Part shown: positions 10,885 through 46,526 of the stretch, piece by piece
How positions within the stretch are numbered: position 1 is the first letter of the stretch
Layout of the letters: every line of letters starts with the position of its first letter
NCBI GenBank assembly: GCA_015521735.1
Contig: WANQ01000034.1
Location: 10,201 to 74,200 of the forward strand
Reading direction: 5' to 3'
DNA: 64,000 nt
Origin: Pyrodictiaceae archaeon
GTDB lineage: Archaea > Thermoproteota > Thermoprotei_A > Sulfolobales > WANQ01
The notes under the pieces: generated by a model
Database searches by the model: none
What the model was told of the DNA's origin: nothing
Seen by the model: the letters and a program-made list of their open reading frames with translations, nothing else
Position numbers and translations under genes: made by a program

Positions 10885-12914
10885 ATATCGTTAAAAAGAT
10901 CTTGAACACAGCATTAGAGCTAAGGAAATACAATATTAGTATAGGGACTTCAGAAATAGTATCTGCTATAAACCTTGTCAAATCATACTCTTATATCTTA
11001 GGTAAAGATCCTTCAGAACTAACAGATGATGAATTAAGATTTATTCTTGAATCAGTTTTTGTTAAAAGAGACTACATTAAACCATACTTTGACAAAGCAT
11101 GGAATAACACCAATGAATTAAGTAATAATATCAATGCAGATAAGCTATTAAACCAAATAGAGAAAAAACTTAATATGCTTAAGTTAAACTTTGGAGCAAC
11201 CTTTAAATCCATTAACACTATAATTGATAAGAAGAAAAATAGAAAGCAACAGAAAATAATACGTGATGCACTATCAACCTTGCAGAGAATAGGCGTAATA
11301 AGGAAGTATAAACGAGGTTATAGAGTTGTTGACAAGAGGAAAGCCCATGAAATAGCTGAAAGTTTAGCTAGGAAAGGTTATGATAGTATAGTAAAAGCTG
11401 GCATGGATGAATTAGTAGACAAGTTAATTAGGAGACCCCATTACTTGATCTCTAAGGACGTAAACGTAATTGTATATGGAGGCTTAACTGAGGACCACGT
11501 TAAACAGATGAATACTCAACAATTACTAGAAATAGCATACTATGCTTACAAGATGGGAAATAAGAAGCTACTACAACTAGTATTAAAGGAATTGTCGCAA
11601 AGAAGTAATTTAGATGAATATATTACGGAAAAACACTTAGAGTTCCTTAAAAGAACTAGTTTTTTAACCAGCAATAATGCTTTAAGTATTCTTAAGAATA
11701 AACCGCGTTTGCTAAAGAGCTATTATGGCTCTAAGGAACTATTAACAATATTAAAGAGTCAAACCAGGAATTTCAGTGAAAACATATTAGATATACTTAA
11801 CGCTCTACCATACATTGCTGATGAACTTGATGCTAAAGACATTGAAAGGATACTAAGCAAAGTGCCGTTGACTAAGTTCCATAAGATTCCACGTAAATTA
11901 TTACGTAAAATAAAGGATCCAAAACTAGTACATGATTTAAATATGGCATTGAATGCAAGTAAAGCATTTGAGTATTTAGTGAAAGCATACAGCACTAATA
12001 CTGATATTGAGGCTAATGTAGAGTATGCAGAATATCTCTTAACTAAAATCATCAATAGTAGGCACTATACTAGTCTAGGCTACAGTGCTAAACTATTTGC
12101 CGATAGGTTAATGAAAATACTATCTAGTACAAGAGGTGAGAGCTCGTTAAGTGCAATAGTAGAGCTATTACGTGGTATGGACTTCATGGAAGCATGGGAT
12201 ATGCTTAGATCTCTTTACTTAACTACAAGTGATCAATTACTTAAAATGAAGATTAGAACGATAGCGAGTAGGCTCTGGATGAAACAACGTGGTAGTATAC
12301 GATCACGAATTTTAAACAATTATGTAAAGAGTAGTAATGAGTATGGTAGAATAGATGTTAGGGAGACTATACTAAATATTGTGAGGTTAAAGAACAATCC
12401 TATAAGGTATAGAAGTAGGGTTAAGCTAAAGGATTTGAACCTTGTAGTAGATGTAAGTGGTAGCATGTATAGGTACTCGACATGGGTTCTTCTAACAGCA
12501 TCAGCTTTCATAAAGAATGTTTCAAGAATAGTAGTTTTCAGTGAAGAACCTAAGGTAATAGATCTTAAGAAAAATAGAACAAGCATGAACACGTTGATAG
12601 ATTATCTTTTATCTATGAGGTTTGGAGGTTATACTGATATAGTTAGTGCATTGATGAAAGCTATAGAGAATACCTCTACACGTAGAATTATTTTAATATC
12701 TGATCTTAAACAAACAGTTAAAACCAATATTGATATTGTAGAACTAATTAAGTCATTATTAGTAAAAGGATGGAGTATAGCTATAATAGCACCCAAATCA
12801 GTAAATGATGTAGTATATAGAAGGATGATTAGAGATAATATACCAGTTTATGTAGTTGAGAACCCCCTTAAAACGCCTATGATATTCTATCAGGTATGGA
12901 GATCTCTTAAGTAA
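10878..12914 (+). CDS. VWA-domain protein (MoxR partner) with a long helical N-terminal region
   Basis: C-terminal MIDAS motif LVVDVSGSMYRYS. The TTG start overlaps the MoxR stop by 7 nt (translational coupling). Confidence 0.75.
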   Translation: MVDIVKKILNTALELRKYNISIGTSEIVSAINLVKSYSYILGKDPSELTDDELRFILESVFVKRDYIKPYFDKAWNNTNELSNNINADKLLNQIEKKLNMLKLNFGATFKSINTIIDKKKNRKQQKIIRDALSTLQRIGVIRKYKRGYRVVDKRKAHEIAESLARKGYDSIVKAGMDELVDKLIRRPHYLISKDVNVIVYGGLTEDHVKQMNTQQLLEIAYYAYKMGNKKLLQLVLKELSQRSNLDEYITEKHLEFLKRTSFLTSNNALSILKNKPRLLKSYYGSKELLTILKSQTRNFSENILDILNALPYIADELDAKDIERILSKVPLTKFHKIPRKLLRKIKDPKLVHDLNMALNASKAFEYLVKAYSTNTDIEANVEYAEYLLTKIINSRHYTSLGYSAKLFADRLMKILSSTRGESSLSAIVELLRGMDFMEAWDMLRSLYLTTSDQLLKMKIRTIASRLWMKQRGSIRSRILNNYVKSSNEYGRIDVRETILNIVRLKNNPIRYRSRVKLKDLNLVVDVSGSMYRYSTWVLLTASAFIKNVSRIVVFSEEPKVIDLKKNRTSMNTLIDYLLSMRFGGYTDIVSALMKAIENTSTRRIILISDLKQTVKTNIDIVELIKSLLVKGWSIAIIAPKSVNDVVYRRMIRDNIPVYVVENPLKTPMIFYQVWRSLK

Positions 12915-12999
12915 CTTCCTTGCCTCTTGTGTTTAGGAGAACTGCTTTTAAGACTTAGCTTAATATAGCAGTAAAGAATAAGCAATAACTACAGGTAAG

Positions 13000-13821
13000 G
13001 TGAAGGTCTTGGAGAACCATAAAATAGCGATAATAATAGCCCTATTAATAATTACCTCAACGAGTATATACACTATAGCACAACAGCTAATAATAGGCAC
13101 AAATAAACCTACATATACATTAGGAGATACAATAACGATCACGGGTAATGGACCTGCAAACGAAGTATTGGCATTCATAGTCCTCTATAACGACAAAGCA
13201 TTAGCTATAGGACAATTACCCATAGATGCTAATGGCTCATTCTCTACGGTATTACCACAACTTGATCTTACTACCCCTGGAACACATACGTTAACAATAA
13301 TAGGAAGCGTTGACCTTGTCACTACTAGTATTAGGAATACATCAACCTTCATCCTAGTAGTACCATCAACTAATACCACGACAACTAATACCACTCCTAC
13401 AACTCTCACAACAGTAACTGTGACAACAACTGTGACGGAAACAGTAACAGAGACCCAAACAACAACAGAAACAGTGACGACTACAAGAACTACTACTAGG
13501 TATCTTACGGAGACTGTAACGAAGATCCTAATCAATACTACAACTGTTACACTAACAAATACGGTAACAGAGACTTCAACAATTGAAAAGACAGTAACAG
13601 AGACTCAAACGGTAACAGAAACCAAAACACTAACTAAGACGGAAACTGAGACTAAAACCGTAACAGAAACCGAGACCATCACGACAATTAACGAGTATAC
13701 AAAAACCGTTACAACAACAATGACTGTTCCAGCATCATTCTATGAGAAGATTATATACCTAGTTGTAGGCTTACTTGTTGGTGCAGCGATTATTTATGCG
13801 ATAAGGATATTCTCCAGGTAG
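13000..13821 (+). CDS. Thr-rich cell-surface protein, probably glycosylated; N-terminal signal/TM and C-terminal TM anchor
   Basis: GTG start. Hydrophobic N-terminus IAIIIALLIITSTSIY, an Ig-like segment, about 120 aa of TVTET-type repeats, and C-terminal IIYLVVGLLVGAAIIYAI. Confidence 0.7.
   Translation: MKVLENHKIAIIIALLIITSTSIYTIAQQLIIGTNKPTYTLGDTITITGNGPANEVLAFIVLYNDKALAIGQLPIDANGSFSTVLPQLDLTTPGTHTLTIIGSVDLVTTSIRNTSTFILVVPSTNTTTTNTTPTTLTTVTVTTTVTETVTETQTTTETVTTTRTTTRYLTETVTKILINTTTVTLTNTVTETSTIEKTVTETQTVTETKTLTKTETETKTVTETETITTINEYTKTVTTTMTVPASFYEKIIYLVVGLLVGAAIIYAIRIFSR
13366..13728 (+). repeat. Degenerate tandem codon repeats encoding (T-V-T-E-T-x-T)n low-complexity linker
   Basis: Repeated acagtaacagagac / acggtaacagaaac units. 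The protein reads TVTVTTTVTETVTETQTTTETV...TVTETQTVTETKTLTKTETETKTVTETETI. Confidence 0.85.
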
Positions 13822-13864
13822 GGTGTATTTAAGGTAAAATTAATACAATATTTTTCACTTTAGT

Positions 13865-14344
13865 TTACTTTAATGCAACGAAGAGAGAGCTTCTAGTAGC
13901 CTTTAATCCTGGTTCACCGTGTTCAACTTTCTTGCATGTTGGACTGAATTCTCCTAGATAATGTCCTATCATCTCAGGTGTTATCTTAACTGGTATGAAC
14001 TCCTTACCATTGTATACTGCAATTGTTAAGCCAACCATTTCTGGTAATATAACCATGTCTCTTACATGCGTTTTGATTACCACCTTTTTGCCTTGAGAAA
14101 TAAGTCTACGTGCCCTCCTAATCTTTTCAAGTAGTCTTCGCTGAGCTGGGGTAAAACCTCTTCTTATACTTCTTCTAGCCCTAGCAGGAAGTAGTTTAAT
14201 TAAATCATCCATAGGCATTAATAGTAATTCTTCTAGTGTATGGCCTCTATACCTAAACTTTCTCCATTCCGGTGGTATAGGTACACCTAGTATCTTTTCC
14301 AAATCTATACTCGTTGTCATACTTCGCTTAGCTGTTGATGCCAA
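13865..14344 (-). CDS. rps19: 30S ribosomal protein uS19
   Basis: C-terminal [34 protein letters not shown]. The ORF starts at a TTG; an ATG at 14320 is an alternative start. Confidence 0.92.
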
Positions 14345-14536
14345 AGCCTTATCACCTAGCCTCAGCTACCACGTCATGATAATATTAGCCTGCTTAAAAG
14401 GTTTAGGCTGTAGAAGTATTTAAACATTAAATACACAGAAAAATATAGGGGATGAAGAAGCTGACCTGCTGAGACTATATACGGAATGATCGAAGAGAGG
14501 CAGTCCCACAGACCCCTTAATAATATCCTCCTGGTA

Positions 14537-14800
14537 ATGTCTATGGGTAAAAAGAAGAGCTTAATTAGAGAATTAATAAATAAAGGATTATGGAGTAATG
14601 AGAAAAGCTTATATGAAATAGTGATAGTGCATAGAGGTGTAAAGGGTAATAGGATTAGCCTTAGACTAGATGAGATAAATGGGGTGCGTGATGGTTACAT
14701 CATAGTTGGTGATACACTAATACCTCTTCATAGAGTTGTGGAAATAAGATATAAGGGTAAGATTTTATTAAAGAGAAAGCATAGCATTACCGAGGAGTAG
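14537..14800 (+). CDS. DUF504/UPF0248 family protein (MJ1316-like RNA-end recognition domain)
   Basis: LIRELINKGLW...YEIVIVHRGVKGN...IPLHRVVEIRYKGKILLKR matches the family pattern. The ORF is open from 14486, but the usual ~85-aa size favours ATG 14537 or 14543. Confidence 0.7.
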   Translation: MSMGKKKSLIRELINKGLWSNEKSLYEIVIVHRGVKGNRISLRLDEINGVRDGYIIVGDTLIPLHRVVEIRYKGKILLKRKHSITEE

Positions 14801-14851
14801 CTTTAGGAAAAAATTTTATGAACTAATATGTATAGTTTTGGTTGAACTTGC

Positions 14852-19720: not shown

Positions 19721-19984
19721 ATGGGTTTAAAGGAGGCATTTACTTGTAGAATATACCTTTCTAGTACTAGTCGTAATATTGTTGATAGTATAGTAAGCAA
19801 GATAATGAGTAAGTATAATGTTAATGTTAGGGTCAAAGAAAGCGTTAATGTTAGTGATTTTTACTTGATAGAGTTCACACTTGATAAACCAATTGATCAA
19901 AGAGATGTTGAAGAAATCCTTATCAACGAGGGATTAAGAAACTTTAACTTTAAGGTGGATGTACTGAAGGTTAAGGTCCCGTAG
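19721..19984 (+). CDS. Hypothetical protein (87 aa)
   Basis: Isolated ORF with an ATG start. No motif recognised. Confidence 0.4.
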   Translation: MGLKEAFTCRIYLSSTSRNIVDSIVSKIMSKYNVNVRVKESVNVSDFYLIEFTLDKPIDQRDVEEILINEGLRNFNFKVDVLKVKVP

Positions 19985-20175: not shown

Positions 20176-21945
20176 TTACTGTAGATTTCTAGTTCTGGTT
20201 CTTAAGTGTTTACTCTCTATGTTAACGTGGGACGCGTCTATCTTAACCCATATAAGGTTCTCCTCATCATGGAGTTTTACTAATGCTTCACCGACACCTA
20301 AATTCTTGTATCTTTGCCTCTCTTTTAATGACATTGGTACATACTCAATAACTTTATCTATGTATTCATCAGAGTTATAACTAAATAATACAAAGTTATT
20401 TGTGTTCTCTAGTACTTGTGGAGGCATATCTGTTAATAGTTGTGTTGATGCTATAACACCTATTCCGAGGCTTCTACCCTCTCTATATATTTTAGATAAC
20501 ATGAATATACTTTCATTACTCATTCTCCACGCCTCGTCTATTACTATTATTTTATTTGTTCCCAATTTCATGCCTAAACTACTATACATGGTTATGGTGA
20601 ATTCCTTAGCCAAGATTAATGATGCTAATAGTTGCTTTAGTTTCTCAGGATAACCTCTAAGAGATATCAATAATGCATTAGACGGTGTATAATTATTAAT
20701 GTTTATACCACCACTGTTTGTGTTTGATTCTTTATCTAATTCTCTTAACGCGTCAACAACTCCTATTAAACTATTGTCTAATTTAGAATACTTTTTAATT
20801 AGTGATAGTAATTGCTCTAAACTAATGTGCTTTGACAAGTTATGTAGACTCATTAAAGATCTATAAATATTATACCTTGCTGTATGGCTTAGCCTAAATA
20901 TTTCAGCAATTATATTTGAGACCTCCATAAACCACTTACTTATAATTTTTGGATTATCTATGTTAATATTTAACAATTCATTAAGATTTATACTAAGACC
21001 TTTTATCCCAATATTGTTTAATAAGTATATTAAATCTCCTTTAAAATCTATTACTACTACACTTACATCCCTATACGCCATTTGGGAAACAAGCAAAGCT
21101 AATAGAGTTGTTTTGCCTCTTCCCGTAGGTCCTGCTATGACGAAATGATTGATAATATGTTTCCTTAAGTCTATAAATACTGGTAGCTTGTTATCCATGT
21201 CAATTCCTATGTAAATACCATTATCGAGATTTTCTAATTCGAGTGAACTATAATTTGTTTTATTTACTGGAATAAATGCTCTTAGCGACTTGTCAAGTAA
21301 TACAATTGAGCGTTTACCCAGGATATACCTTTTATTATAGACTAGAGGCAATCCTATTAATTCATTTATGTTAACTCTTTTTAGATTAAGTCCTAGATAT
21401 TGTCTTACTACAATTGCTAAATTATGTTCTAGTCTATTGATTTCATTGGGTATTTCATCACACTTCCCATTCTTAACTATTACAAAGAGTATTGACACTC
21501 TCATAGGTAAATAGTTATTTGTTGTTACGTTTTCATAGATATTGCTTAGCAAGCGCAACTTACTTTGTAGACTAGGATTGTAGTTAAACTCCACCATAAA
21601 CGATAATCTATTGATTTCATTTTCTATTTTCTTAATTAATTTATCCTTAGGATAACGCTCAGTTATTATTATTAAATGAATATCAGGATATAGATAGAGT
21701 ATCTCAGATATTTTACTCACATAATTTAGTATGTACACGTCATCACTTGAAAGCAATGATAAAGGAATGTTTTTTAATGTTAGAATTGAGAAGCCGAAGC
21801 AAGTATTTTCATTGGTATTTTTAACTATGACCATGTTATCTTTTAATGTAACTACATTTGAAGTGAAATCTGAATTACTTTTGCTCTTCTTAATGATGTT
21901 ATGCTTAAATAACTTAATGATTTTTTCAAGTAACATTACTCTCAC
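20176..21945 (-). CDS. VirB4/HerA-superfamily ATPase, CedB-like (no TM segment)
   Basis: 589 aa. Walker A GPTGRGKT, Walker B KIIVIDEAWRM, and REGRSLGIGVIASTQ. Last gene of a tightly overlapped membrane-protein operon. Confidence 0.7.
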   Translation of the reverse strand: MRVMLLEKIIKLFKHNIIKKSKSNSDFTSNVVTLKDNMVIVKNTNENTCFGFSILTLKNIPLSLLSSDDVYILNYVSKISEILYLYPDIHLIIITERYPKDKLIKKIENEINRLSFMVEFNYNPSLQSKLRLLSNIYENVTTNNYLPMRVSILFVIVKNGKCDEIPNEINRLEHNLAIVVRQYLGLNLKRVNINELIGLPLVYNKRYILGKRSIVLLDKSLRAFIPVNKTNYSSLELENLDNGIYIGIDMDNKLPVFIDLRKHIINHFVIAGPTGRGKTTLLALLVSQMAYRDVSVVVIDFKGDLIYLLNNIGIKGLSINLNELLNINIDNPKIISKWFMEVSNIIAEIFRLSHTARYNIYRSLMSLHNLSKHISLEQLLSLIKKYSKLDNSLIGVVDALRELDKESNTNSGGININNYTPSNALLISLRGYPEKLKQLLASLILAKEFTITMYSSLGMKLGTNKIIVIDEAWRMSNESIFMLSKIYREGRSLGIGVIASTQLLTDMPPQVLENTNNFVLFSYNSDEYIDKVIEYVPMSLKERQRYKNLGVGEALVKLHDEENLIWVKIDASHVNIESKHLRTRTRNLQ

Positions 21946-22126
21946 CTTCTATTAAACGTATGTAGAAGAATATTGATGCTATCCCAATTATAATAACAAT
22001 AATGTGTAAGAACACTAGCCAAGTATCTTCATATTTGTTAATTGAAATAACATCAAATACCAGTACTAGCAGAAAGAATAAGGAAAAGATAAACGTCTTA
22101 TCAATATAGCGCTTCATGAATATCAT
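21926..22126 (-). CDS. Small two-TM membrane protein (CedA2/VirB3-like position)
   Basis: 66 aa with two hydrophobic helices. 4-nt overlap with the upstream gene and 20-nt overlap with the ATPase gene. Confidence 0.55.
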   Translation of the reverse strand: MIFMKRYIDKTFIFSLFFLLVLVFDVISINKYEDTWLVFLHIIVIIIGIASIFFYIRLIEGESNVT

Positions 22127-23568
22127 ACCCTAAATATAATTCTAGGAACTCGTGCTCCCAGAACATAGGCTAATCCATATGTTATCATAGTTAATAGTAT
22201 TATGTATGATGTAGGAAATATCAGCATTAATGCCATGAATATAAAGGCGGCTTGTCTAAGGACTTCATCTATGTCCCTACCTTCAGTTAATGTTTTAACA
22301 TATGGAACCTCTATGGATTCAGGTGGTTTTACTTGATTGGGAGAACCCACCAATTCTATTCTTAATAGACCTCTACTTTCATTTAATTCTGCATAGACCA
22401 TCCTTATTGTATTGCTATACCAATTAATCTTCTCAACAAAATACTTTACCGTAGTATTGTTGATTTTAACATCCAGTACATCTAGAGAATTAGGTAAAAG
22501 TAATATCTCATATACACCATTATAATTTAGCGATACATTTAATAGTACATTAATCTTGTTATTGTATTCCATAATTATAGGTATTCCATTATATGTTATT
22601 TTGGGATTACTCAGTACTATAATGCCCTTATAATATTTTAGGATGCCAGGTAGGGTTATTGATGCTTCTTGAAATGTGTTATGTATGACTCTCTCGGATT
22701 CTTTAAAATATTCAATAGGCTTAATGCTGCTTGGCGAAACAACAAAATTCAATCCATAATATTCTGCTTGCAATCTTACCTTAGGAAAAGCTGGAAATCC
22801 TTTATCAGGATAGGAAGCATAAATATAGCCATCGCTTTCAGATAGATACCTAGCTAACAAATTGCCTTGATCATCGTAAATGCTTAAGATAACAAAGGGT
22901 ATCCTATCACCTGCTATAGAACGTACTTCTATACGCGGAAACATCACTCCATACTCAATAAACAGCTTGAGCTTATCTGGAATTGTAGTAGGTATAGCCA
23001 TAAACATCATAAAATTAGGCATTAGTGGTAGACCTATGTAGAATACTATAGTGAATGCCAGTAGACTAGCACCTGCAACCCTAGTTATTCTAAAGGGTAT
23101 AGAGTAAAATAATATAGAAAGTGCTATCATTTTAGTTGCCGTATACCTTACTATAATACTTAATGTAATTATTAATGTTATAATTAATAGAGCATATGAT
23201 AGGAAACCTTTAATTGTGAATAATAGAGACGTGAAAGTATACATTTTAATATATGGTATTTTTGTCATTAATGTTAGAGAAACTTCTATAAATATTATGA
23301 ATACTAGTAGAAGTGCCCATAATGAGCCCGTGGTTAAGTCAAATGTTTCCCAGTCAGCTCCAAGTATTTCATACACATAGTTTATTATTATTATTATGTT
23401 GTTAAAGAATAGAGTTAAAGATGCTGCTAAGAGTCCATCAAATATTAATAAGGGAGCCCATCGTTTAATACCATACCATGGTATGGGTATTGCGTATATA
23501 AGTACACCTAAATAATATGTTAATACTGATAGTGCAAAAGCTGCATTAAGTACGGTATCTATGAACAT
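22123..23568 (-). CDS. Polytopic membrane protein with a large beta-rich extracytoplasmic insert (CedA/VirB6-like position)
   Basis: About 7 N-terminal TM helices, a ~220-aa hydrophilic beta-rich segment and a C-terminal TM pair. ATG 23568 (MFIDTV...) is preceded by AGAGGA; the ORF is open to 23616. Confidence 0.6.
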   Translation of the reverse strand: MFIDTVLNAAFALSVLTYYLGVLIYAIPIPWYGIKRWAPLLIFDGLLAASLTLFFNNIIIIINYVYEILGADWETFDLTTGSLWALLLVFIIFIEVSLTLMTKIPYIKMYTFTSLLFTIKGFLSYALLIITLIITLSIIVRYTATKMIALSILFYSIPFRITRVAGASLLAFTIVFYIGLPLMPNFMMFMAIPTTIPDKLKLFIEYGVMFPRIEVRSIAGDRIPFVILSIYDDQGNLLARYLSESDGYIYASYPDKGFPAFPKVRLQAEYYGLNFVVSPSSIKPIEYFKESERVIHNTFQEASITLPGILKYYKGIIVLSNPKITYNGIPIIMEYNNKINVLLNVSLNYNGVYEILLLPNSLDVLDVKINNTTVKYFVEKINWYSNTIRMVYAELNESRGLLRIELVGSPNQVKPPESIEVPYVKTLTEGRDIDEVLRQAAFIFMALMLIFPTSYIILLTMITYGLAYVLGARVPRIIFRV

Positions 23569-23581
23569 AGTGATATCCTCT

Positions 23582-23848
23582 TTACGGCATGGGTGGCTCT
23601 GGTAAAGGCATTGCAATCAACGACACAATATATGCCACTATTGAAAAGATGGTAGAGCCCATAGCAAGCCAAAAAGCTGCTAATACCGCATCTTCAACTA
23701 GATCCTGTCCTACCCTCTTGACACGCATAAATGGTATTGGCGAACCTTTAATAGCCCATCCTATAACCCATGAAAGAAAGAATAATACCCATGCTATTGT
23801 TGCTATTTGAAACGTTATATTTCTTATTAAATCAATTATGTCACTCAC
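23582..23848 (-). CDS. Small hydrophobic helix-hairpin protein (CedA1/VirB2 pilin-like)
   Basis: 88 aa, GTG start. Two hydrophobic helices (ATIAWVLFFLSWVIGWAI and AVLAAFWLAMGSTIFSIVAYIVSLIA) are joined by a basic loop. First gene of the operon. Confidence 0.5.
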   Translation of the reverse strand: MSDIIDLIRNITFQIATIAWVLFFLSWVIGWAIKGSPIPFMRVKRVGQDLVEDAVLAAFWLAMGSTIFSIVAYIVSLIAMPLPEPPMP

Positions 23849-23927
23849 TATACCCCCACTAAATCGTTATTAGCTTATAAAACGTCACGTACTAACAAGT
23901 AAATAAGGCTCTAGTAGGTGAGGAACA

Positions 23928-25961
23928 GTGAAATGGCCTAAGATAGTGAACATGTACTGGTGCCCCAACTGCAATGTACCAGTACTGTCGAGTACTTGTC
24001 CTAAATGCGGATCAAAAACAATACAATTAAAATTACCACCACCAGGTGATGCTAGACTAGCATTTAAACACGACATACTTAGAATAAATACTCTTCTTGA
24101 AAGGTACTTTAATACAAGAATAGATAAGTTATTTAAGGGAAACAATATCGTATTATTATCAAAGGAGCCTTACATAGATGAAAGGAGAGTTGTAATAGTT
24201 TCAGGAGTAAATATAGGTTCTATCTATTTTAACCCATACTTATATACCGACATGTTTAAACCATCTCCATTACTAGCACATTTATTAATAAATAATAATA
24301 TTACTGATCCCATAAAATTAAATAATGATTATAAAATAGGTGATCTAGTAAGAATAGAAAATAATAGAGATGTAGTCATTGGTATAACTAATAGCTATGT
24401 ATACGTATTAATGAAGGTTAACGAAGGCTTATATAGAGTTAAGGATAAGTCTCCACTAAATGTTCTAGATCGACAATTAGATAAACTTACAAGCATAGAC
24501 AAAAATAATACCCTACAAACAGTAGTTACTGTAAATGAACCGTTTCTACTAAGATATGTATCTGTAAGTGAAGCCTTCATATACTCGATGCACAATAAAA
24601 TTAATAAAACAATCGTATCCTTTTCTGGAGGAAAAGATAGTTTAACAGTACTCCACTTAACACTTGATGCAGGCATAGAACCCGAAGTAGTGTTTAATAA
24701 TACTGGTATAGAATTGCCGGAAACAATTGAAACCGTCTACAATACTATAGAGGAATTCGATTTAAAACTACACATTGCGGATGCTGGAGATCGTTTCTGG
24801 AAAGCAGTTAAGACCTTTGGACCCCCAGCTAGAAACTATCGATGGTGTTGTAAGGTAGTAAAATTAGTTCCATTTGCAAGATTAGCTAAAAGTACCTGGA
24901 AGTATAATGCATTGAATATACTAGGTCAAAGAAGTTATGAATCCTACGATAGGGCTAGAAGTCCAAGGGTTTGGAGAAATAAGTGGGTACCCAATGTACT
25001 TTCAGCTGCTCCCATTCAAGACTGGCCTCAATTCCTGGTATGGCTGTACATATTTAAGAATAAGCTAGATAGTCTAGTAAACTCATTATACTTTAAAGGC
25101 TTCGAGCGAATAGGATGTTACTTATGCCCTGCTAGCTCACTTTACGAGTTCAGTGTTGTTGAGAAAACACATCCAGAGCTATGGGAAAAATGGAAAAAAG
25201 TACTTAGGTCTTTTGGATGTAGTGAGACCTGCATAAAATTAGGGCTGTGGCGATGGATAGGCCCAGCCTCAGTTAAGAAGCAGCTGATGTCAAAGTACAG
25301 AATAGCCTATAGCTGGGAACATGAGTATTCAAATATTATCCCATTAAAAATAAAAAAAGTTAACATCTCAGTGAAAGATAAAAGCATAGTATACACCTTG
25401 GTATTTGACAAACATATTTCAGCACATAGATTTAAGAAACAAGCATCAATTCTCCGATTAAAAGCCAAGGATGAAAAAGTACTCGAAAACAGTAAGTTAA
25501 GAGTAGAAATACAAGGCAATAAGTTAAAACTCACCATCAATGAAACCAAGGAATCACTAGCTTTTGAAACCATGTTAGACGTACTAAAAATACTATATAG
25601 AGCCCAAAACTGTGTAGGATGTGGTAGTTGTACTCTTTGGTGCCCCACAAACGCTATAAGAATAAGCAACGAGAATTACCCAGTGGTAGACACCAAAAAA
25701 TGTATATCCTGTAAAATATGTATACATGAGTGCCCTATAGCTGAATTGATTGTGGATAAACTAATTGCAAGCCTCATACTTAAGAGATATGATGGTTGGA
25801 GAAGAGAAGGTAGGGTAGAGAGTAAAAAGAAGATAGACAACACGATAAAACTATTAGCTGTAATTAAAAGTGCTACATATAGGGATGCTAAAAGTGAGAA
25901 ACCTAGTAGCGATACTGATTATTCTAATATTATCATTAATTTTGATAGAATTGATGCCTAA
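23928..25961 (+). CDS. PP-loop / PAPS-reductase-family protein with an N-terminal zinc ribbon (plus PUA-like region) and a C-terminal 2x[4Fe-4S] ferredoxin domain
   Basis: CPNC..CPKC ribbon; SFSGGKDSLTVLHL PP-loop; NYRWCCKVVKL and GCYLCP motifs; CVGCGSCTLWCP and CISCKICIHECP clusters. Confidence 0.8.
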   Translation: MKWPKIVNMYWCPNCNVPVLSSTCPKCGSKTIQLKLPPPGDARLAFKHDILRINTLLERYFNTRIDKLFKGNNIVLLSKEPYIDERRVVIVSGVNIGSIYFNPYLYTDMFKPSPLLAHLLINNNITDPIKLNNDYKIGDLVRIENNRDVVIGITNSYVYVLMKVNEGLYRVKDKSPLNVLDRQLDKLTSIDKNNTLQTVVTVNEPFLLRYVSVSEAFIYSMHNKINKTIVSFSGGKDSLTVLHLTLDAGIEPEVVFNNTGIELPETIETVYNTIEEFDLKLHIADAGDRFWKAVKTFGPPARNYRWCCKVVKLVPFARLAKSTWKYNALNILGQRSYESYDRARSPRVWRNKWVPNVLSAAPIQDWPQFLVWLYIFKNKLDSLVNSLYFKGFERIGCYLCPASSLYEFSVVEKTHPELWEKWKKVLRSFGCSETCIKLGLWRWIGPASVKKQLMSKYRIAYSWEHEYSNIIPLKIKKVNISVKDKSIVYTLVFDKHISAHRFKKQASILRLKAKDEKVLENSKLRVEIQGNKLKLTINETKESLAFETMLDVLKILYRAQNCVGCGSCTLWCPTNAIRISNENYPVVDTKKCISCKICIHECPIAELIVDKLIASLILKRYDGWRREGRVESKKKIDNTIKLLAVIKSATYRDAKSEKPSSDTDYSNIIINFDRIDA

Positions 25962-27828
25962 TCTAACTAGCTTAGCTAATTTCTATAAATACATTGATTT
26001 AACGTTACTACTATCTTTAATAATAGTACCAGCAGTCATAATTGTAGCATTAGCAACTATAATATGTGAAAGCATAATATTACCTGTCTTAACAATAGTC
26101 GTAATGGCCTTTTATGCAATATTAAGTGGGTTGCAAATGCAATCAACTATGAATAACATTATGCAAAGCACACCAATATTGACTATTTTCAAAGATTTGA
26201 TTCCATTAGATAAACTTAGTCTTGCATTAAGGGTCACTCCTCTAATACTTTTAGCAATAGCAATAGCTGCTGGTATAGCATACAAAGTATTAATTGCAAA
26301 AATTAAGGATAAAACCATAGAAGATAAACTGCTAACAATATTACAACTAATGATAAAACATGGTAAATTCAGGGGTAAGAGAATAAGTGTTACTGAAATA
26401 GTTCATAATATTACCATGCTCTTATCCATACTATTTCTAATAGGTTACGTATTAGTAAAGGTGGGATTGAAGAATACTACAATTGATATATTAACCTTTC
26501 TACCCTTATCCTTAATATTCATTACCTACCTGACTATTCTGGGAAACAAATCCCTAATCACAAATATAATTATTCTAATGTCTTCATGGATGTCTCCAAT
26601 ACTTTTCTTAGCAAGCATACTTGATTTTTGGAGAACCTTTGAAACTACATACTTAGAGCCTTTACACTTTCGTGAAGGAGTACGTTTAGGTTTAATAAAA
26701 GCATTGCTTACACAAGGTGAAGGCAAGGAGTACAACGCCGTATCACATTTCAAAGATCGAGTAATAGTATCATCAACAACAAAGTGGAAATGGGTAGAAG
26801 TTAACAAAGATTATTATTTTGACCCTTATAAGCAGGTAAACCCTCATGTAATGATAAGTGGTACAAGTGGTAGCGGAAAATCATTTACAACAGCAATTAT
26901 GCTAGCTAAAATGTATACAGAACTAGATATAGGATACCTAGTAATAGACTTTCACGGAGAATACTTAGATAAATTAAAAACCATAGGATTGAAGTATATC
27001 AACTATATTAATGCATTACATAATACTATAAACCTATTAGACCTTGAAGGTCAGCCACCAAATCTAAGAGCAAGTGAAATAGCTGACGTAGTAAAAAATC
27101 TATTTAACTTAGGGCCCTTACAAAGACTAATACTACAAAAAGTACTTGAAGAAGCCTATGCTTTAGCAGAAATAACAGACGATCCCAGCACATGGAATAA
27201 AACCGTGAAGAGTTCACACGTAATACAGGCTTACAGAAAACTCCTATCAATGACTGAAAATGAACAAGAACTAAGAGTGTTAAAGAGCTTAGAACCATAT
27301 ATAAAAACTATATCATCAAGCATAATAACCCAATCAAAAATCAACATATCAGAACTATTAAGTAGACCCACAATACTCGATCTATCACACATACCTAGCA
27401 TATTCATAAAAAGACTTTATGTTAGTGCACTACTAATGAAAATATACTACAATCTACCTAGGATAAAGCCGAGTAGACTAACGTACATAGTAATTGATGA
27501 AGCACATAGAGTAATTAAAGAAAATGAAGATGTATTAGTTAAATTATTCGCTGAAAGCCGAAAATATAATATAGGTTTAATAATAGTAACCCAAAATCCC
27601 AAAGATATACCTAACAACATAGTATCAAATACATCACTACAAATATTCTTAAAGCTAGTAGAACCCTCAAATATAGAATACGCTGCTAAAATTTTAGGAG
27701 GATACTCTTCAAATGATAGAATAGATCATATAAAAAGAGCTCTATACTACCTACCCCAATACCATGGCATTGTAAAGGATAGTTTAATTAGGGAGCCGCT
27801 AATCGTTGATCTAACGTGGAGATCTTAG
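25954..27828 (+). CDS. Membrane-anchored HerA/FtsK-superfamily (DUF87-like) ATPase
   Basis: About 250-aa N-terminal multi-TM domain, then Walker A ISGTSGSGKS, LVIDFHGEY, Walker B YIVIDEAHRV and ESRKYNIGLIIVTQNP. ATG 25954 overlaps the upstream stop; the ORF is open from 25870. Confidence 0.75.
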   Translation: MPNLTSLANFYKYIDLTLLLSLIIVPAVIIVALATIICESIILPVLTIVVMAFYAILSGLQMQSTMNNIMQSTPILTIFKDLIPLDKLSLALRVTPLILLAIAIAAGIAYKVLIAKIKDKTIEDKLLTILQLMIKHGKFRGKRISVTEIVHNITMLLSILFLIGYVLVKVGLKNTTIDILTFLPLSLIFITYLTILGNKSLITNIIILMSSWMSPILFLASILDFWRTFETTYLEPLHFREGVRLGLIKALLTQGEGKEYNAVSHFKDRVIVSSTTKWKWVEVNKDYYFDPYKQVNPHVMISGTSGSGKSFTTAIMLAKMYTELDIGYLVIDFHGEYLDKLKTIGLKYINYINALHNTINLLDLEGQPPNLRASEIADVVKNLFNLGPLQRLILQKVLEEAYALAEITDDPSTWNKTVKSSHVIQAYRKLLSMTENEQELRVLKSLEPYIKTISSSIITQSKINISELLSRPTILDLSHIPSIFIKRLYVSALLMKIYYNLPRIKPSRLTYIVIDEAHRVIKENEDVLVKLFAESRKYNIGLIIVTQNPKDIPNNIVSNTSLQIFLKLVEPSNIEYAAKILGGYSSNDRIDHIKRALYYLPQYHGIVKDSLIREPLIVDLTWRS

Positions 27829-27843
27829 CGCTGAATATAGTAT

Positions 27844-28116
27844 TTGGTGATAGACGTGGAGGAAGAACTAACCGTATCTGAAGGTGAAGTTCAAAGCAAG
27901 GAAGCAGAATACGAAGAATCTGAAGAAATATTGATTAGCGAAGAAGCATTTGACACCAATAGCCTAGAAGTATTACTACAGATAACAGATGTATGGAATA
28001 AGGCATTAAATGGACAATTGAGTTTAGATGAAGCATCCACAATTATAAAATCCATATCATCTAGCATAAAAAGAGAAAAACCTGCTAAACGAAGGAGAAG
28101 AAAATCTAGCAAATAA
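27844..28116 (+). CDS. Small protein with an acidic N-terminus and a Lys/Arg C-terminal tail
   Basis: 90 aa, TTG/GTG start 15 nt after the ATPase stop. EEELTVSEGEVQSKEAEYEESEE...KREKPAKRRRRKSSK. The charge layout resembles RNAP subunit Rpo13, but this is unverified. Confidence 0.45.
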   Translation: MVIDVEEELTVSEGEVQSKEAEYEESEEILISEEAFDTNSLEVLLQITDVWNKALNGQLSLDEASTIIKSISSSIKREKPAKRRRRKSSK

Positions 28117-28128: not shown

Positions 28129-28515
28129 TTAATACATAACCTCCTTCTTTACATCAACCTCATAACCTAGTTCTTTCAATGACTCAACTATTTTGTCTAC
28201 TGGAACTCTTCTATCAAACACTATAGTTACTAATTTTTCATCTCCCTCCTTTGATAATACTACCCTATCAACAATAATGTTACCCCTAATCATATCATCA
28301 ACTGATTTAGGTGGCGCAAGACTATCTTTGAATTTCTTCTTCATGATCTCATAGAAGACGTCAAAATTAGCTATGTATCTTTGTGCTTCATCAACATCAT
28401 TTGTTCGTTTACCTAGTTTATTAACTATTATGTTTAAGAGCTTCCTAGCCTTATCTGCTGGCAACTTCACATGCCTATACTTTCCCATATCGATTAATAA
28501 CGTTACCTTACTCAT
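28129..28515 (-). CDS. Hypothetical protein (128 aa)
   Basis: ORF divergent from PCNA. No motif recognised. Confidence 0.5.
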   Translation of the reverse strand: MSKVTLLIDMGKYRHVKLPADKARKLLNIIVNKLGKRTNDVDEAQRYIANFDVFYEIMKKKFKDSLAPPKSVDDMIRGNIIVDRVVLSKEGDEKLVTIVFDRRVPVDKIVESLKELGYEVDVKKEVMY

Positions 28516-28571
28516 AATATTCCCCAGGAGAAGATAACAACCTCTAGACTATATGTTTTTAAGAATACAGG

Positions 28572-28579
28572 TATAAAAG
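28572..28579 (+). promoter_or_regulatory. TATA box candidate for PCNA
   Basis: TATAAAAG lies 26-33 nt upstream of ATG 28605, which suggests a short-leader transcript. Confidence 0.45.
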
Positions 28580-28604
28580 AGCATGTATGGTAGGAGAGGT
28601 AGCT

Positions 28605-29369
28605 ATGGTGTTCCGTGCAGTTTATCCCGCAGCTACAAAGTTTAAGTATATAGCACAAACTATATCAAAAATAGTAGACGAGATACCATTCATAGCAACA
28701 CCCGATGGTTTATTCGTTAAATCCTTAAGTAGTGATAAAACAACAATGATAATTCTTCAAATACCTGTTACAGCATTCGAAGAATATCAATGCGACGAAG
28801 ACAAGGTGACATTCATAGTGAATGCAGACGAGTTCTCAAGAATAAGCAAGAGAGGAACTAGAAACGACTTAGTTGAATTAGAACTAGAAAAAGAAAACAG
28901 AAGACTAAGATTAGGATTCATTGATAAAAAGACAGGAGTTACGAGAACGTTTTACCTAGAGTTAAGGGAAGGCGTAGTAGAAGACCTTGGAGAACCAAAT
29001 GTAGAATTGCCTATAATTGCTAGAATGCTTACTGACACCTTTAAAAACGCCTTACGCGACGCTAAGATAGTGGATGAGGAAGTAGAAATCGTAGCTGAAG
29101 GCGAAGAAAAACTAATAATAAGGAGTATAACACCACAACGCGAATACCATAATATTATGGAAAGAGATAAGGCATTAATATCCTTTAGGTCAAGTGTTGA
29201 TAAGGCACGAGCAAGATACAGTTTAGAGCTCTTGGAAGCAACGCTAAAGGCTACAACAGCTGCTGAAGCATTAACACTAGAATTTGGTGAAGGATTACCA
29301 CTTAAATTAACATTTGATTTACCTGGAGGTAGTACTCTAACATACTGGATAGCACCTAGAACGGGGTAA
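28605..29369 (+). CDS. pcn: DNA polymerase sliding clamp PCNA
   Basis: MVFRAVYPAATKFKYIAQTISKIVDEIPFIATPDGLFVKSLSSDKTTMIILQIP, about 250 aa. ATG 28605 is preceded by GGAGAGGT; the ORF is open from 28587. Confidence 0.9.
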   Translation: MVFRAVYPAATKFKYIAQTISKIVDEIPFIATPDGLFVKSLSSDKTTMIILQIPVTAFEEYQCDEDKVTFIVNADEFSRISKRGTRNDLVELELEKENRRLRLGFIDKKTGVTRTFYLELREGVVEDLGEPNVELPIIARMLTDTFKNALRDAKIVDEEVEIVAEGEEKLIIRSITPQREYHNIMERDKALISFRSSVDKARARYSLELLEATLKATTAAEALTLEFGEGLPLKLTFDLPGGSTLTYWIAPRTG

Positions 29370-43256: not shown

Positions 43257-46109
43257 TTACACAGAGCCTTTAAGTTTCTGTAGAAATGCTGCTCCATTAA
43301 GTGCTATGTAGGGTATTAAGTCTTTTGAGACATAGTAGTACTTGGGCGATAGTGATTGAAGAAGGCTCGACGATAGTGGTGTAACCTTAACTTCATATGC
43401 TTCGTCTACGGGTATCTTCTTCTTAAATCTCTCTACGTCTTCTAAAACCTCCTTAGGTGTAAAGTACACTGGAATATATGACTCACCGCTAGCAGGCTTT
43501 ATTTGTAGTAGGAATGCTTCATTTAGGTCACTAGGTGTAAAGGATTCACTAAAGATTTCGCTTGATACAATTACTTTAACATCTCTAGCCAATGCCCACC
43601 TCCATTCACCCAACTCTACATCAAGGAACTGGAATACTCTATCAATGCTACCAGGTTTTCTAAGTTCTTTGAGCTTATGTTCAATGGTTTTAGGAGGTAA
43701 ACCTGTTATCTCAGCTAACTCGTCTATAGTGAAAGCCATTCCATCAAGATTACGTACTATTACACCACTAACATCGGGAATCCATGGTCTTATCTCAGGC
43801 ATTCTCCTTAAATAGCCTGCAAGCGGTGAAAGTATCTTAGGTGACCCCAAGTCAACTATTTCCACTTCACCCCTCCTTAATGATTCTACGAACTTCTTTG
43901 CTCCTTCTACATCAAAGTAGTACTGAATAGTTTGTCTTAGCGCTTCTTTTGACAATAATGCATCATTGTCTTCATCTACCTTACCTATCTTACCAAAGCT
44001 TAACTGTAATTCCTTAAGCATTGCAGCATAAAGTGGTGATCTCCTAACAGCTTCATAGACCAATTTCTCTACATCAAGCTCAGTTAAGCTTTTCAGCAAT
44101 TCAACTACATCTATTCTACTGGTTCTTACGGAAAAACCGTAGAAAGCAGATCTTATTGCTACTTGAAGTGTATGTTTAGATGATACAAGATACATTAGCA
44201 TGTGGGCTATGGTGTTAGCTATACGTTCCCCTAAGAATACAGTAAAGAATACCTCATCTCCCATTCTTTCTACAATAATCCTACGAGTAGTTGGTATCGG
44301 TATACCCAGCTTCTTATAGACATTAACTAAACTAACAAGTCTTGATACAACATTGCTTGGTATCCTAATGTTTTCTGGAACATCTATGTAGCCTTTAGCC
44401 CATGCTTCTTCAAGTACTCTACTCGACTCTAATGCTATTATATTATCCCTTTTAACACCTTCACCTCTCCACAATGGAACCTCTGATTCACGTACATCAG
44501 CTTCAACTACATCTATTCTCATGAGGTTCTCGTCTATTGATACTACTCTCCAAGTCTTACCAGCAAGTCTAAATACATCACCTACACGTAGGTACTTGTA
44601 TACGTATACTGCATCAACATCACCTACAGTTTTATCATCATACTTGACTGTAAACGCTCTACGTTCACCTATAAATGAGAAGAATTCTGCAAAACTTCTC
44701 ATCCACCACCTTCTAACTCCTTCATCAAATCTCCATATCTTATAGAATACTGGGCCAAGTTTTATCTTTGAACCATTTCTCTCAATTACCTTCATCTGAC
44801 TTAAATACTTAATTAATTCATTGAATTCACTAACGGTTAAGTCTCTAAACGGGTATGATGCTTTGAGTATCTTGTAAGCATATTCTAAGTCCACTTCACC
44901 AAACTGAAGACACATTCCCATAAGTTCTCTTGCTGCAACATCGAGGGGTTTAGTTAGGGTTTTAGTTGGCTCAAGTTTTCTCCTAATCAGTAATCTTGCC
45001 GTAGCAATGGCTTCAAGAACGTCTACATCATCTAAGCAGATTACAGCGCCAATAGACTTATCTCCTATTCTATGTCCACTTCTACCAATTCGTTGTATAA
45101 GTGATGTAACTGATCCGGGGGGTCTAAACTGTATAACTGATTTCACACTTCCCAAATCTATTCCTAGTTCAAGAGTCTTAGTACATACAACTGTGTTAAC
45201 AATACCTTTTCTCAATAATTCCTCTGTTTCTTGTCTAACTTCCCTTGAAACAGATGAGTGGTGTACTGCTACTCCCTTTACACCCATTTTTTCTATAGCT
45301 TCATGTAAGCGTTCAGCAGTAAACCTAGAGTTGACGAACACTAGCGATGGTGGATCCACATGCTTTAATATCACTTTAACTGCATTACTCCAAAGTTCAT
45401 CATTTGATCCATACTCTACATAGTCTATTCTCACCTCGAAATCCTTTGCCTCCTTAACCTCAACTATTTCTCTAGGCCTCTTGGAAGAACCAAATATGAG
45501 ATTTGCAGCCTCCTCCGGACTACCAATAGTAGCTGATAACCCTATTACTTGGAAATCTTTACCAGTAATCTCTCTAAGTCTCTCTAAGAGAACTGCTAAC
45601 TGTACACCACGTTTCGTACCTACAAGTTCATGTACTTCATCCACTATAACCCATCTAACATTTACATAATATTCACGAAATCTTGACGCCCAGTCGAGAT
45701 CTATTTCAAGGCTCTCAGGCGTTATTATGAGTATGTGTGGAACTTTCCTAAGCCTTCGTGCTCGCTCACTTTGCGGGACATCACCATGCTTTCTAGCTAC
45801 TATGAAACTTAGCTTATTAGCCCACCACTGAATCCTAATCATTAAATCATTGATGAGAGCCCGTAGTGGTGTTATATATAAGACTGCTATAGGTTCAACG
45901 TTTTCGTTAAGCATCATTGAGAGAACAGGTATTATAGCCGCCTCTGTTTTACCATAGCCTGTAGGAGCTATTATCAACGTGTTATAGCCTTTGAGAATAC
46001 TAGGTATGCCTTTAATCTGAGGTAGAGTGAGGTCATTCCATCCACGTAACCGTATAAGTTCCCTCACCTTAGGATGCAGCAAACCTAGTATTTCATCACC
46101 ATTACCCAT
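43257..46109 (-). CDS. lhr: Lhr-type (large helicase-related) SF2 ATP-dependent DNA helicase
   Basis: 950 aa. IIAPTGYGKTEAAIIP, VIVDEVHEL, TKTLELGIDLG and IQRIGRSGHR, followed by a long Lhr-like C-terminal extension. Confidence 0.85.
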   Translation of the reverse strand: MGNGDEILGLLHPKVRELIRLRGWNDLTLPQIKGIPSILKGYNTLIIAPTGYGKTEAAIIPVLSMMLNENVEPIAVLYITPLRALINDLMIRIQWWANKLSFIVARKHGDVPQSERARRLRKVPHILIITPESLEIDLDWASRFREYYVNVRWVIVDEVHELVGTKRGVQLAVLLERLREITGKDFQVIGLSATIGSPEEAANLIFGSSKRPREIVEVKEAKDFEVRIDYVEYGSNDELWSNAVKVILKHVDPPSLVFVNSRFTAERLHEAIEKMGVKGVAVHHSSVSREVRQETEELLRKGIVNTVVCTKTLELGIDLGSVKSVIQFRPPGSVTSLIQRIGRSGHRIGDKSIGAVICLDDVDVLEAIATARLLIRRKLEPTKTLTKPLDVAARELMGMCLQFGEVDLEYAYKILKASYPFRDLTVSEFNELIKYLSQMKVIERNGSKIKLGPVFYKIWRFDEGVRRWWMRSFAEFFSFIGERRAFTVKYDDKTVGDVDAVYVYKYLRVGDVFRLAGKTWRVVSIDENLMRIDVVEADVRESEVPLWRGEGVKRDNIIALESSRVLEEAWAKGYIDVPENIRIPSNVVSRLVSLVNVYKKLGIPIPTTRRIIVERMGDEVFFTVFLGERIANTIAHMLMYLVSSKHTLQVAIRSAFYGFSVRTSRIDVVELLKSLTELDVEKLVYEAVRRSPLYAAMLKELQLSFGKIGKVDEDNDALLSKEALRQTIQYYFDVEGAKKFVESLRRGEVEIVDLGSPKILSPLAGYLRRMPEIRPWIPDVSGVIVRNLDGMAFTIDELAEITGLPPKTIEHKLKELRKPGSIDRVFQFLDVELGEWRWALARDVKVIVSSEIFSESFTPSDLNEAFLLQIKPASGESYIPVYFTPKEVLEDVERFKKKIPVDEAYEVKVTPLSSSLLQSLSPKYYYVSKDLIPYIALNGAAFLQKLKGSV

Positions 46110-46246
46110 GTTAAACCCACCGCTTAGACCGTTAGCATATACTGTTTACCGCCACATACCTTACAGACACTATACAACCATAGCGTTATCCTATCACCCA
46201 CACCCTTTAAAAAGCCTAACGGGTACCCAGCACTAGGGATAGCTAA

Positions 46247-46489
46247 TTGACTGAGAAATACACGTGCATTACATGTGGTAGAAAATTCCCCAAAGGCCAA
46301 GGAGTCATAGTAGAAGTAGGGAAAACAATACTAACATTCCACAGCACTAGATGTGCAACAAAATTCTTTAAACTACTCATAGAAAGAGTAGAAAACAAGG
46401 ATATCATTGAAAGAGCTGCACGACAACTGATAAGAGAACTCAATGAGCAGAGAATGAAAATAGAGGAAGTAAAGAGGAAGAAAATATAG
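46247..46489 (+). CDS. Small zinc-ribbon protein (L24e/TRASH-like N-terminus)
   Basis: 80 aa, TTG start. YTCITCGRKFPKGQGVIVEVGKTILTFHSTRCATKF. TATA-like CTTTAAAAAG lies about 40 nt upstream. Confidence 0.45.
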   Translation: MTEKYTCITCGRKFPKGQGVIVEVGKTILTFHSTRCATKFFKLLIERVENKDIIERAARQLIRELNEQRMKIEEVKRKKI

Positions 46490-46526
46490 ACTCTAGTACC
46501 TACACTTATGTAATAGAGCCCAGTTA

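Follow-up and report, generated by a model that had tools for sequence, protein, structure and literature searches.

Three genes lie one after another on the plus strand at positions 23928-28116 of the window, which is the whole 64,000-nt stretch of DNA from a Pyrodictiaceae archaeon (contig WANQ01000034.1) that was analyzed here. Gene 1 (23928..25961) encodes a 677-aa PP-loop/Fe-S enzyme of the PRK13795 family, as judged from the open reading frame (ORF) list and from matches in Pfam, NCBIfam, and PADLOC. Gene 2 (25954..27828) encodes a CedD-like, membrane-anchored ATPase of the HerA/VirB4 clade with 624 aa counted from its ATG (NCBIfam, Pfam, and hydropathy). Gene 3 (27844..28116) encodes a protein of 90 aa, or 89 aa from a GTG at 27847, that was assigned to Rpo13 by profile comparison with the PDB and by Pfam PF12136. 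The ORF of gene 2 is open from 25870 with its ATG at 25954, and the TAA stop of gene 1 (25959-25961) falls within the resulting 8-nt overlap (string ATGCCTAA), while 15 nt separate the stop of gene 2 from the start of gene 3. On the other side, a divergent intergenic region of 79 nt (23849..23927) separates the start of gene 1 from that of the pilin gene cedA1 at 23848 on the minus strand. An earlier note on this DNA, which put the pilin-like gene about 80 bp away, had located the three ORFs, the ATG/stop overlap, and the 15-nt gap correctly, and all motifs that it quoted were found in the translations of the three genes. Its proposal that the genes form a candidate undescribed module is not supported, because gene 2 is CedD-like, gene 3 is assigned to Rpo13, gene 1 encodes an enzyme found across the archaea, and the tandem arrangement is specific to one clade. 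CedD and Rpo13 are already known, and gene 1 is a member of a known, uncharacterized family. What looked like a new module resolves into a probable DNA-import ATPase CedD, Rpo13 of the RNA polymerase, and an uncharacterized enzyme with wide conservation, and the apparent operon is probably a clade-specific juxtaposition of three functionally separate genes in a long Desulfurococcales syntenic block.

When a profile of 11 positional homologs of gene 3 was compared with the PDB, the top five matches were all Rpo13 chains (7OK0, 3HKZ, 2WB1, 2Y0S, and 2WAQ), covering nearly the full length with E-values from 1e-8 to 2e-6, and the next match had an E-value of about 1. Nine of the 11 homologs, the best of them at 3.7e-9, also match Pfam PF12136; by itself, the protein of the window reaches E 0.003 and 17.8 bits against a cut-off of 25. 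In the relatives, the small gene directly before the 128-aa gene and PCNA encodes a protein whose conserved L-E-x-F-x-x-I-T-E-x-W-x-x-x-L-x-G core stands between an acidic head and a basic tail. The window protein has a Glu-rich head with 15 D/E in its first 37 aa, a central helix-turn-helix (HTH), and an Arg/Lys tail with 10 K/R in its last 16 aa, which agrees with the acidic head and KRRRRK tail described earlier, and it is the only ORF of such design within the window. The same layout is seen in Rpo13 (2WAQ, 3HKZ, 4AYB, and 7OK0), which has about 90-105 aa, with an N-terminus rich in Glu, an HTH in the middle, and a tail rich in Lys/Arg, except that the tail of gene 3 is Arg-rich whereas that of Rpo13 is Lys-rich. 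Rpo13 carries a polarized charge and a DNA-binding tail and occurs in Sulfolobales, Desulfurococcales, and Acidilobales (PMC3479171). At the level of sequence and profile matches, gene 3 is the RNA polymerase subunit Rpo13. Its product would act in RNA polymerase, with the basic tail binding downstream DNA. Since gene 3 is assigned to Rpo13, it would be a housekeeping transcription gene and not a DndE-like partner.

Gene 2 encodes a protein with six transmembrane-like segments (aa 10-225), a Walker A motif GTSGSGKS at 303, and a Walker B motif YIVIDE at 511, as read from a hydropathy scan and the translation, and it matches Pfam DUF87/HerA at 7e-18, in keeping with the multi-transmembrane N-terminus and HerA/FtsK-type ATPase of the earlier description. 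NCBIfam has models for CedD and CedE, and the best NCBIfam match of gene 2 is CedD (NF053655) with 107 bits, versus 78 bits for CedB. The same preference is seen in related genomes, where the ATPases at the downstream position score higher for CedD than for CedB in five of six cases, and those at the upstream position score higher for CedB than for CedD in all four, with near-full-length CedB alignments. The genes for CedB, CedA, and CedA1 lie in the same window, on the minus strand at 20176-23848. CedD is described as a protein that combines a transmembrane and an N-terminal domain with an ATPase of the HerA/VirB4/CedB-like kind; it is called 'VirD4-like', is essential for DNA import, and is found in Sulfolobales, Desulfurococcales, and Acidilobales alongside CedB (PMC11868833, PMC11823120). 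An N-terminal transmembrane anchor is present in many CedD proteins but not in all (PMC11868833). CedD (Saci_0667 / SiRe_1715) and gene 2 share the N-terminal transmembrane domain and HerA/VirB4-clade ATPase and the co-occurrence with CedB, CedA, and CedA1; they differ in that gene 2, which has about six predicted transmembrane segments, lies in or beside the ced locus, whereas the cedD of Sulfolobales is unlinked from the other ced genes. Gene 2 therefore encodes, with good probability, the CedD counterpart of this organism, and strict orthology with Sulfolobales CedD is what we infer from the sequence comparisons. Such a protein would work alongside CedB, the channel formed by CedA, and the pilus of CedA1 in importing DNA, CedD being a membrane-anchored hexameric ATPase of the HerA/VirB4 clade. 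The earlier note had suggested a coupling-protein-like membrane ATPase beside VirB2/3/4/6-like genes, of a sort that Ced systems are not known to have. The kind of ATPase agrees with CedD as the best match, but the view that Ced lacks a second ATPase of the coupling type is outdated because CedD was described in 2025.

Several results on gene 2 argue against this assignment. They would fit a HerA-like membrane ATPase that is specific to the lineage, is distinct from CedD, and resembles it only in the ATPase core; such a protein could be a motor for DNA export or a genuine coupling protein of the VirD4 type. The 107 bits of gene 2 stand far below the CedD equivalog cut-off of 600 bits, and only the ATPase core aligns with the model (aa 293-565 on 218-476 of 527). 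One member of the gene 2 family (P0173) prefers CedB, and the positional homolog in locus L044 scores for CedB at or above CedD. An exhaustive profile search with the gene 2 family gave 12,517 hits, and among 10 of them sampled by length, none reached the CedD threshold and none was a bona fide Sulfolobales CedD; word-indexed homolog searches with a single sequence and with a profile returned 12 and 51 proteins, none named CedD. Models of type IV coupling proteins also give weak matches just under the Pfam cut-offs (TrwB_AAD_bind, 19.7 versus 20.5 bits; TraG-D_C, 21.3 versus 22 bits), with VirD4-like CD1115 at 16 versus 250 bits, and P-loop_TraG reaches 29.1 versus 25.8 bits, covering only a 58-residue P-loop stretch. 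On the other hand, gene 2 and its counterparts are the only second HerA/VirB4-type ATPases beside ced genes in the loci examined, and six of seven positional homologs prefer CedD over CedB. Published surveys also place CedD with CedB in Desulfurococcales, and TedD, the CedD homolog of Thermoproteales, lies inside the Ted locus (PMC11868833, PMC11823120). A motor distinct from CedD is thus a doubtful explanation for gene 2.

The product of gene 1 is a multidomain protein composed of a Zn ribbon with a pre-PUA/PUA-like region (aa 1-190), a PP-loop domain (aa 228-402), an alpha+beta domain (about aa 470-545), a ferredoxin domain (aa 555-608), and C-terminal helices. Its translation contains the Zn ribbon cysteines C12/C15/C24/C27, the PP-loop SGGKDS at 233, RWCC at 305-308, GCYLCP at 396-401, and two CxxCxxCxxxCP motifs (562-573 and 592-603) that indicate a 2x[4Fe-4S] ferredoxin. 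Pfam assigns PAPS_reduct (1e-38) to aa 228-402 and Fer4/4Fe-4S dicluster families to aa 555-608. In the family alignment, SGGKDS, C307/C308/C397/C400, and the eight ferredoxin cysteines are invariant, and the CC...CxxC formed by the four cysteines is the [4Fe-4S] ligand pattern of assimilatory adenosine 5'-phosphosulfate (APS) reductases. An AlphaFold2 (AF2) model of the whole protein has a predicted local distance difference test (pLDDT) score of 89.5. Because the full-length Foldseek search was swamped by the core of the 3'-phosphoadenosine 5'-phosphosulfate (PAPS) reductases, aa 1-195 were modeled and searched apart (AF2, pLDDT 88.6). The best matches of this part are AF0587 (2q07) and PH0734.1 (3d79), with probabilities of 1.00 and 0.99 and E-values of 7e-3 and 1e-2, and it also matches a Nop10-type Zn ribbon. 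We take AF0587 and PH0734.1, both archaeal, to be PUA-domain proteins. The PUA-like fold is typical of RNA-binding proteins. The models moderately support a Zn ribbon plus PUA-like head, as had been suggested earlier, and the profile of gene 1 against the PDB matched ferredoxin and CysH-type domains only.

By NCBIfam, gene 1 is placed in PRK13795 (PRK13795.1-3), with 390 bits and aa 8-606 aligned on 11-631 of 635. This score is under the equivalog cut-offs of 456-1086 because the models are subfamily-specific, and all four PRK13795 subfamily models are titled 'hypothetical protein'. Our literature searches for a characterized function of the PRK13795 family found none. At least 553 genomic relatives of gene 1 were confirmed in a scan of one genome per species, and the taxonomic spread, copy number, and identity gradient were read from 80 of them. 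Full-length matches with 31-41% identity among the 80 come from Desulfurococcales-type lineages, Thermofilales, Bathyarchaeia, Thermococci, Thermoplasmata, and Methanosarcinales, and also from Methanomassiliicoccales, Methanomethylicota, Nezhaarchaeota, Brockarchaeota, Hydrothermarchaeota, and an Asgard metagenome-assembled genome (MAG). One of the homologs (L081) is from a Thermococcus MAG. All 80 loci come from different assemblies, and gene 1 therefore looks single-copy. Identity to gene 1 follows a gradient across the archaea that tracks taxonomy, whereas defense islands are known as patchy. The PRK13795 family is spread much more widely than Ced, which is reported only from Thermoproteota (PMC11868833, PMC11823120). 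Outside Desulfurococcales, ORF clustering and Pfam show mixed neighbors with no conserved partner, such as DUF7714 in Thermoplasmata, MarR-type regulators and an M42 peptidase in Thermococci, TrpA in Hydrothermarchaeum, and a Cas4-like protein and PurH in Methanosarcinales. The Cas4-like protein has 273-296 aa, with a PD-(D/E)XK superfamily assignment and a Cys cluster, and its gene precedes that of the PRK13795 homolog in the same orientation in L069 (8865-9707), L074, L076, and L079; it stands directly upstream in three of these four Methanosarcinales loci.

The database name of the PP-loop domain would make gene 1 a ferredoxin-dependent assimilatory APS/PAPS reductase. Gene 1 matches PAPS_reduct at 1e-38, the top Foldseek matches of the full-length model are APS/PAPS reductases (target TM-scores 0.66-0.75), the invariant CC...CxxC and PP-loop-type fold are common to gene 1 and the [4Fe-4S] assimilatory APS reductases of the CysH type, and the fused ferredoxin could donate electrons. 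However, the catalytic C-terminal ECG[LI]H cysteine motif was not found in any of 21 family members, and the NCBIfam CysH/APS reductase models stay below their cut-offs (57 versus 154, 52 versus 235, and 33 versus 165 bits). Gene 1 also differs from these reductases in its additional PUA-like and ferredoxin domains, its family is present in methanogens and Thermococci, and no sulfate-assimilation gene is conserved among the neighbors that were clustered or scanned. We rejected a sulfate-assimilation reading for gene 1, a role in sulfate reduction being hardly probable in view of the missing ECGLH motif and the low CysH scores.

The Fe-S-dependent PP-loop thiolases of tRNA (TtuA, NcsA, and TtcA) offer another comparison. 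Gene 1 has in common with them the fold of a PP-loop ATP-pyrophosphatase, a catalytic domain with a [4Fe-4S] cluster, and a Zn ribbon, and TtuA structures are among its Foldseek matches, although they cover the core only (target TM-scores 0.40-0.49). It differs from them in belonging to the PAPS-reductase-type subfamily, and no sulfur-carrier partner was identified for gene 1. We infer that gene 1 encodes a housekeeping modification enzyme of the thiolation type and not a Ced component. In the mechanism that we propose, whose chemical steps are modeled on what is known of PP-loop thiolases, DndC, and BrxP, the Zn-ribbon/PUA-like head would bind nucleic acid, most likely RNA such as tRNA or rRNA, the PP-loop domain would adenylate the target with ATP, the [4Fe-4S] cluster held by CC...CxxC would deliver sulfur, and the C-terminal 2x[4Fe-4S] ferredoxin would supply electrons. 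The last of the explanations offered in the earlier note, an RNA-directed PP-loop enzyme that is a neighbor of the Ced genes by accident, is the best-supported reading, with two caveats: the BrxP/SspD-like core of the enzyme and the adjacency of cedA1 in about 20 Desulfurococcales genomes.

The gene neighborhood was surveyed by calling ORFs in 81 loci (L001-L081), clustering them, and mapping the genes of the window onto them. In about 20 loci, cedA1 and cedA lie divergently upstream of gene 1, directly so in 13, and all of these loci are from species-level genomes of Desulfurococcales-type lineages of several families, including Staphylothermus, Thermogladius, Thermosphaera, Ignicoccus, and Desulfurococcaceae MAGs. 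In 17 loci, gene 1 is followed by a convergent gene for an Lhr helicase (about 940 aa; Pfam DEAD, DEAD_assoc, and WH_Lhr), and in about 10 of the 17, the CedD-like gene comes next, followed by an Rpo13-type small gene, a 128-aa gene, and PCNA. With the convergent Lhr gene between them, gene 1 and the CedD-like gene cannot be co-transcribed in those genomes. The tandem of genes 1, 2, and 3 was found only in the clade of the window (L082, L084, L085, and L086; gene 1 identity 49-80%), with the 8-nt overlap kept in L084 and L085 and a 4-nt gap in L082. In the window, the Lhr-type helicase gene (43257..46109, minus strand, 950 aa; tblastn, Pfam DEAD, DEAD_assoc, and WH_Lhr) is about 15 kb from genes 1 and 2, and its product shows 33% identity over 804 aa to that of the L003 Lhr gene (11984-14818) by tblastn. 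The tandem overlap would have arisen when the Lhr gene, normally convergent between the two, moved about 15 kb away. On the question raised in the earlier note, whether the enzyme travels with the membrane ATPase and with Ced genes elsewhere, the survey gives a divided answer: the cedA1/gene 1 pair recurs in about 20 Desulfurococcales genomes, but the gene 1-gene 2 tandem is confined to one clade and gene 1 extends far beyond Ced.

The genes concerned belong to a syntenic block of about 20 kb with the order L3/L4/L23 operon, SPOUT methyltransferase, cedB, cedA, cedA1, gene 1, (Lhr), cedD, rpo13, 128-aa gene, PCNA, 84-aa gene, and DUF72. The adjacency of cedA1 and gene 1 is largely shared ancestry because it lies inside this long block with housekeeping genes. 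Gene 1 is also kept where Ced genes are not adjacent: in L035, a Desulfurococcus MAG, the order is Lhr, gene 1, SPOUT methyltransferase, and L3; in L049 and L050, gene 1, Lhr, and rpo13 occur without an adjacent ATPase; and in L009, cedA1 lies 8.6 kb from gene 1. Desulfurococcus is reported to use VirB4 in place of CedB/CedD (PMC11868833, PMC11823120). The pairing of Lhr with PRK13795, which persists without adjacent Ced genes in L035, L049, and L050, is a sturdier linkage than that of PRK13795 with Ced.

The strongest match of gene 1 to a functionally characterized family is PADLOC BrxP, with 172 bits over aa 202-600 on profile positions 105-500; positions 500-779 of the profile (DUF4007) have no counterpart in gene 1. 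BrxP and a subset of SspD consist of a PAPS reductase, a Mog1p/PsbP-like alpha+beta domain, and a ferredoxin-type region rich in Cys; BrxP has a fused DUF4007 in addition (PMC12839542), and it makes DNA phosphorothioate (PMC12914056). The BREX type 4 BrxP/SspD proteins share the core of gene 1, from the PAPS-reductase PP-loop to the Cys-rich [4Fe-4S] ferredoxin-type region, and gene 1 differs from BrxP in lacking the DUF4007/SspB fusion and in adding the Zn-ribbon/PUA-like head. DndC is a more distant relative of gene 1 than BrxP/SspD; gene 1 has a PP-loop and an Fe-S cluster, but the DndC profiles of PADLOC give it only 18-31 bits. The earlier note had compared the three genes with the DndC/D/E logic of DNA sulfur modification. 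We rejected this reading, since gene 3 is assigned to Rpo13 and gene 2 is an ATPase of the HerA/FtsK type and not DndD/SspC; in addition, gene 1 appears as a single-copy gene across the archaea without a conserved partner, and Lhr splits it from gene 2 in most related genomes.

The BrxP match nevertheless leaves a second possibility for gene 1, namely an enzyme like BrxP/SspD/DndC that inserts sulfur into DNA and that in Desulfurococcales works with Ced, for example in marking or discriminating imported or exported DNA; it would be co-regulated with cedA1 through a divergent promoter common to both and, in the clade of the window, co-translated with CedD. A number of our observations favor it over an RNA-directed housekeeping enzyme. 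Besides the BrxP-like core and the recurrent cedA1/gene 1 adjacency, the Foldseek E-values of the PUA-like head are weak, and the overlap of gene 1 with the CedD-like gene suggests co-translation in this clade. DNA-related genes stand around gene 1, with Lhr, PCNA, and XPB in Desulfurococcales and the Cas4-like gene in Methanosarcinales. The intergenic region between cedA1 and gene 1 has a single TTATAAAA box at 23875-23882, at a distance of about 34 nt from where cedA1 starts and about 46 nt from where gene 1 starts, and its TATAAAA is invariant in five related cedA1/gene 1 intergenic regions that were aligned. This box could be a shared bidirectional core promoter that would be used in both directions. 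A Shine-Dalgarno-like GGTGAGG is present at 23917-23923, and a scan for bacterial-type promoters and terminators gave the same counts as in shuffled sequence.

Against a DNA-directed enzyme, many archaeal lineages carry the family in a single copy without Ced genes nearby, gene 1 is retained in L035 and L049/L050 without adjacent Ced genes, and its N-terminal fold is of the kind found in RNA binders. In the window and the related loci, no cysteine desulfurase, SspB/DUF4007, BrxC/SspC, DndD/E, PglZ, or BrxL, that is, no partner gene of a phosphorothioate system, was seen among the neighbors scanned. The block of about 20 kb that holds the cedA1/gene 1 adjacency also contains the genes for ribosomal proteins, the SPOUT methyltransferase, Rpo13, and PCNA. 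A DNA-directed sulfur enzyme that works with Ced is therefore unlikely, and we regard a true functional coupling between gene 1 and Ced, or a DNA substrate for gene 1, as quite improbable. A more specific version is highly improbable: the PRK13795 enzyme would be a BrxP-like thiolation enzyme of the nucleic-acid backbone or bases that was recruited to the Desulfurococcales Ced locus, sharing a promoter with cedA1 and, in this clade, translationally coupled to CedD, and it would modify or mark either transferred DNA or an RNA that the DNA-damage response requires. If true, this would tie the sulfur modification of nucleic acids to DNA import in archaea. We retain the RNA-directed housekeeping enzyme as the preferred reading. 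PRK13795 is of interest for its place, seen again and again, inside the Desulfurococcales ced locus and for its makeup, in which a PUA-like head is joined to a PP-loop and three predicted Fe-S clusters in a core like that of the DNA-phosphorothioating BrxP/SspD. Finding the substrate could bring to light either an RNA modification enzyme still missing from archaea or a cellular ancestor of the phosphorothioation defense systems.

The Ced genes upstream of gene 1 are all on the minus strand. cedA1 (23582..23848) encodes a VirB2-like pilin of 88 aa that passes the NCBIfam Ced_CedA1 cut-off (122.9 versus 100 bits). cedA (22123..23616) encodes a VirB6-like polytopic protein of 497 aa, identified by NCBIfam Ced_CedA (136 bits over aa 21-208, under the cut-off) and its transmembrane profile, and cedB (20176..21945) encodes a VirB4/HerA-like ATPase of 589 aa that matches NCBIfam CedB with 80 bits, versus 55 for CedD, at near full length (7-562 on 36-579 of 590). 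The 497-aa CedA is longer than the 259-position Sulfolobales profile, with an extra C-terminal part of about 290 aa that contains a transmembrane region near aa 449-490, and this longer CedA (444-528 aa) is kept across the Desulfurococcales loci. A 66-aa ORF with two predicted transmembrane segments (21926..22126, minus strand) in the interval between cedA and cedB overlaps both genes. Its position and topology resemble those of CedA2 or a VirB3-like adaptor; it has no family match in Pfam or NCBIfam, and L003, L004, L029, L036, and L082 each have an ORF of 60-65 aa at this place. Just upstream of cedB, an 87-aa ORF (19721-19984, plus strand) without a Pfam match may be another gene associated with Ced or one with a regulatory role, and ORFs of 87-88 aa are found there in L041, L082, L084, and L085. 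Many Desulfurococcales have a compact ced locus of cedB, a small gene with two transmembrane segments, cedA, and cedA1, with a cedD-like gene 2-5 kb away and housekeeping genes interleaved, and this layout may help in choosing organisms or constructs for the whole machine.

Downstream of gene 3, the conserved context (28129..29369; Pfam, NCBIfam, and clustering) consists of a 128-aa gene on the minus strand (28129-28515) and PCNA on the plus strand. The 128-aa protein is encoded beside PCNA and rpo13 in 16 related loci with 27-55% identity and has no Pfam or NCBIfam match. Elsewhere in the window, the GC content rises from about 0.34 to 0.41-0.44 at approximately 46000-58000, where a 616-aa DUF5906 protein is encoded at 48743-50593 (minus strand). 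We take the DUF5906 domain to belong to D5-like primase-helicases, and this region may be an integrated mobile element. At 9874-12914 on the plus strand, an AAA_5 (MoxR-like) ATPase gene adjoins a gene for a VWA/CoxE-domain protein.

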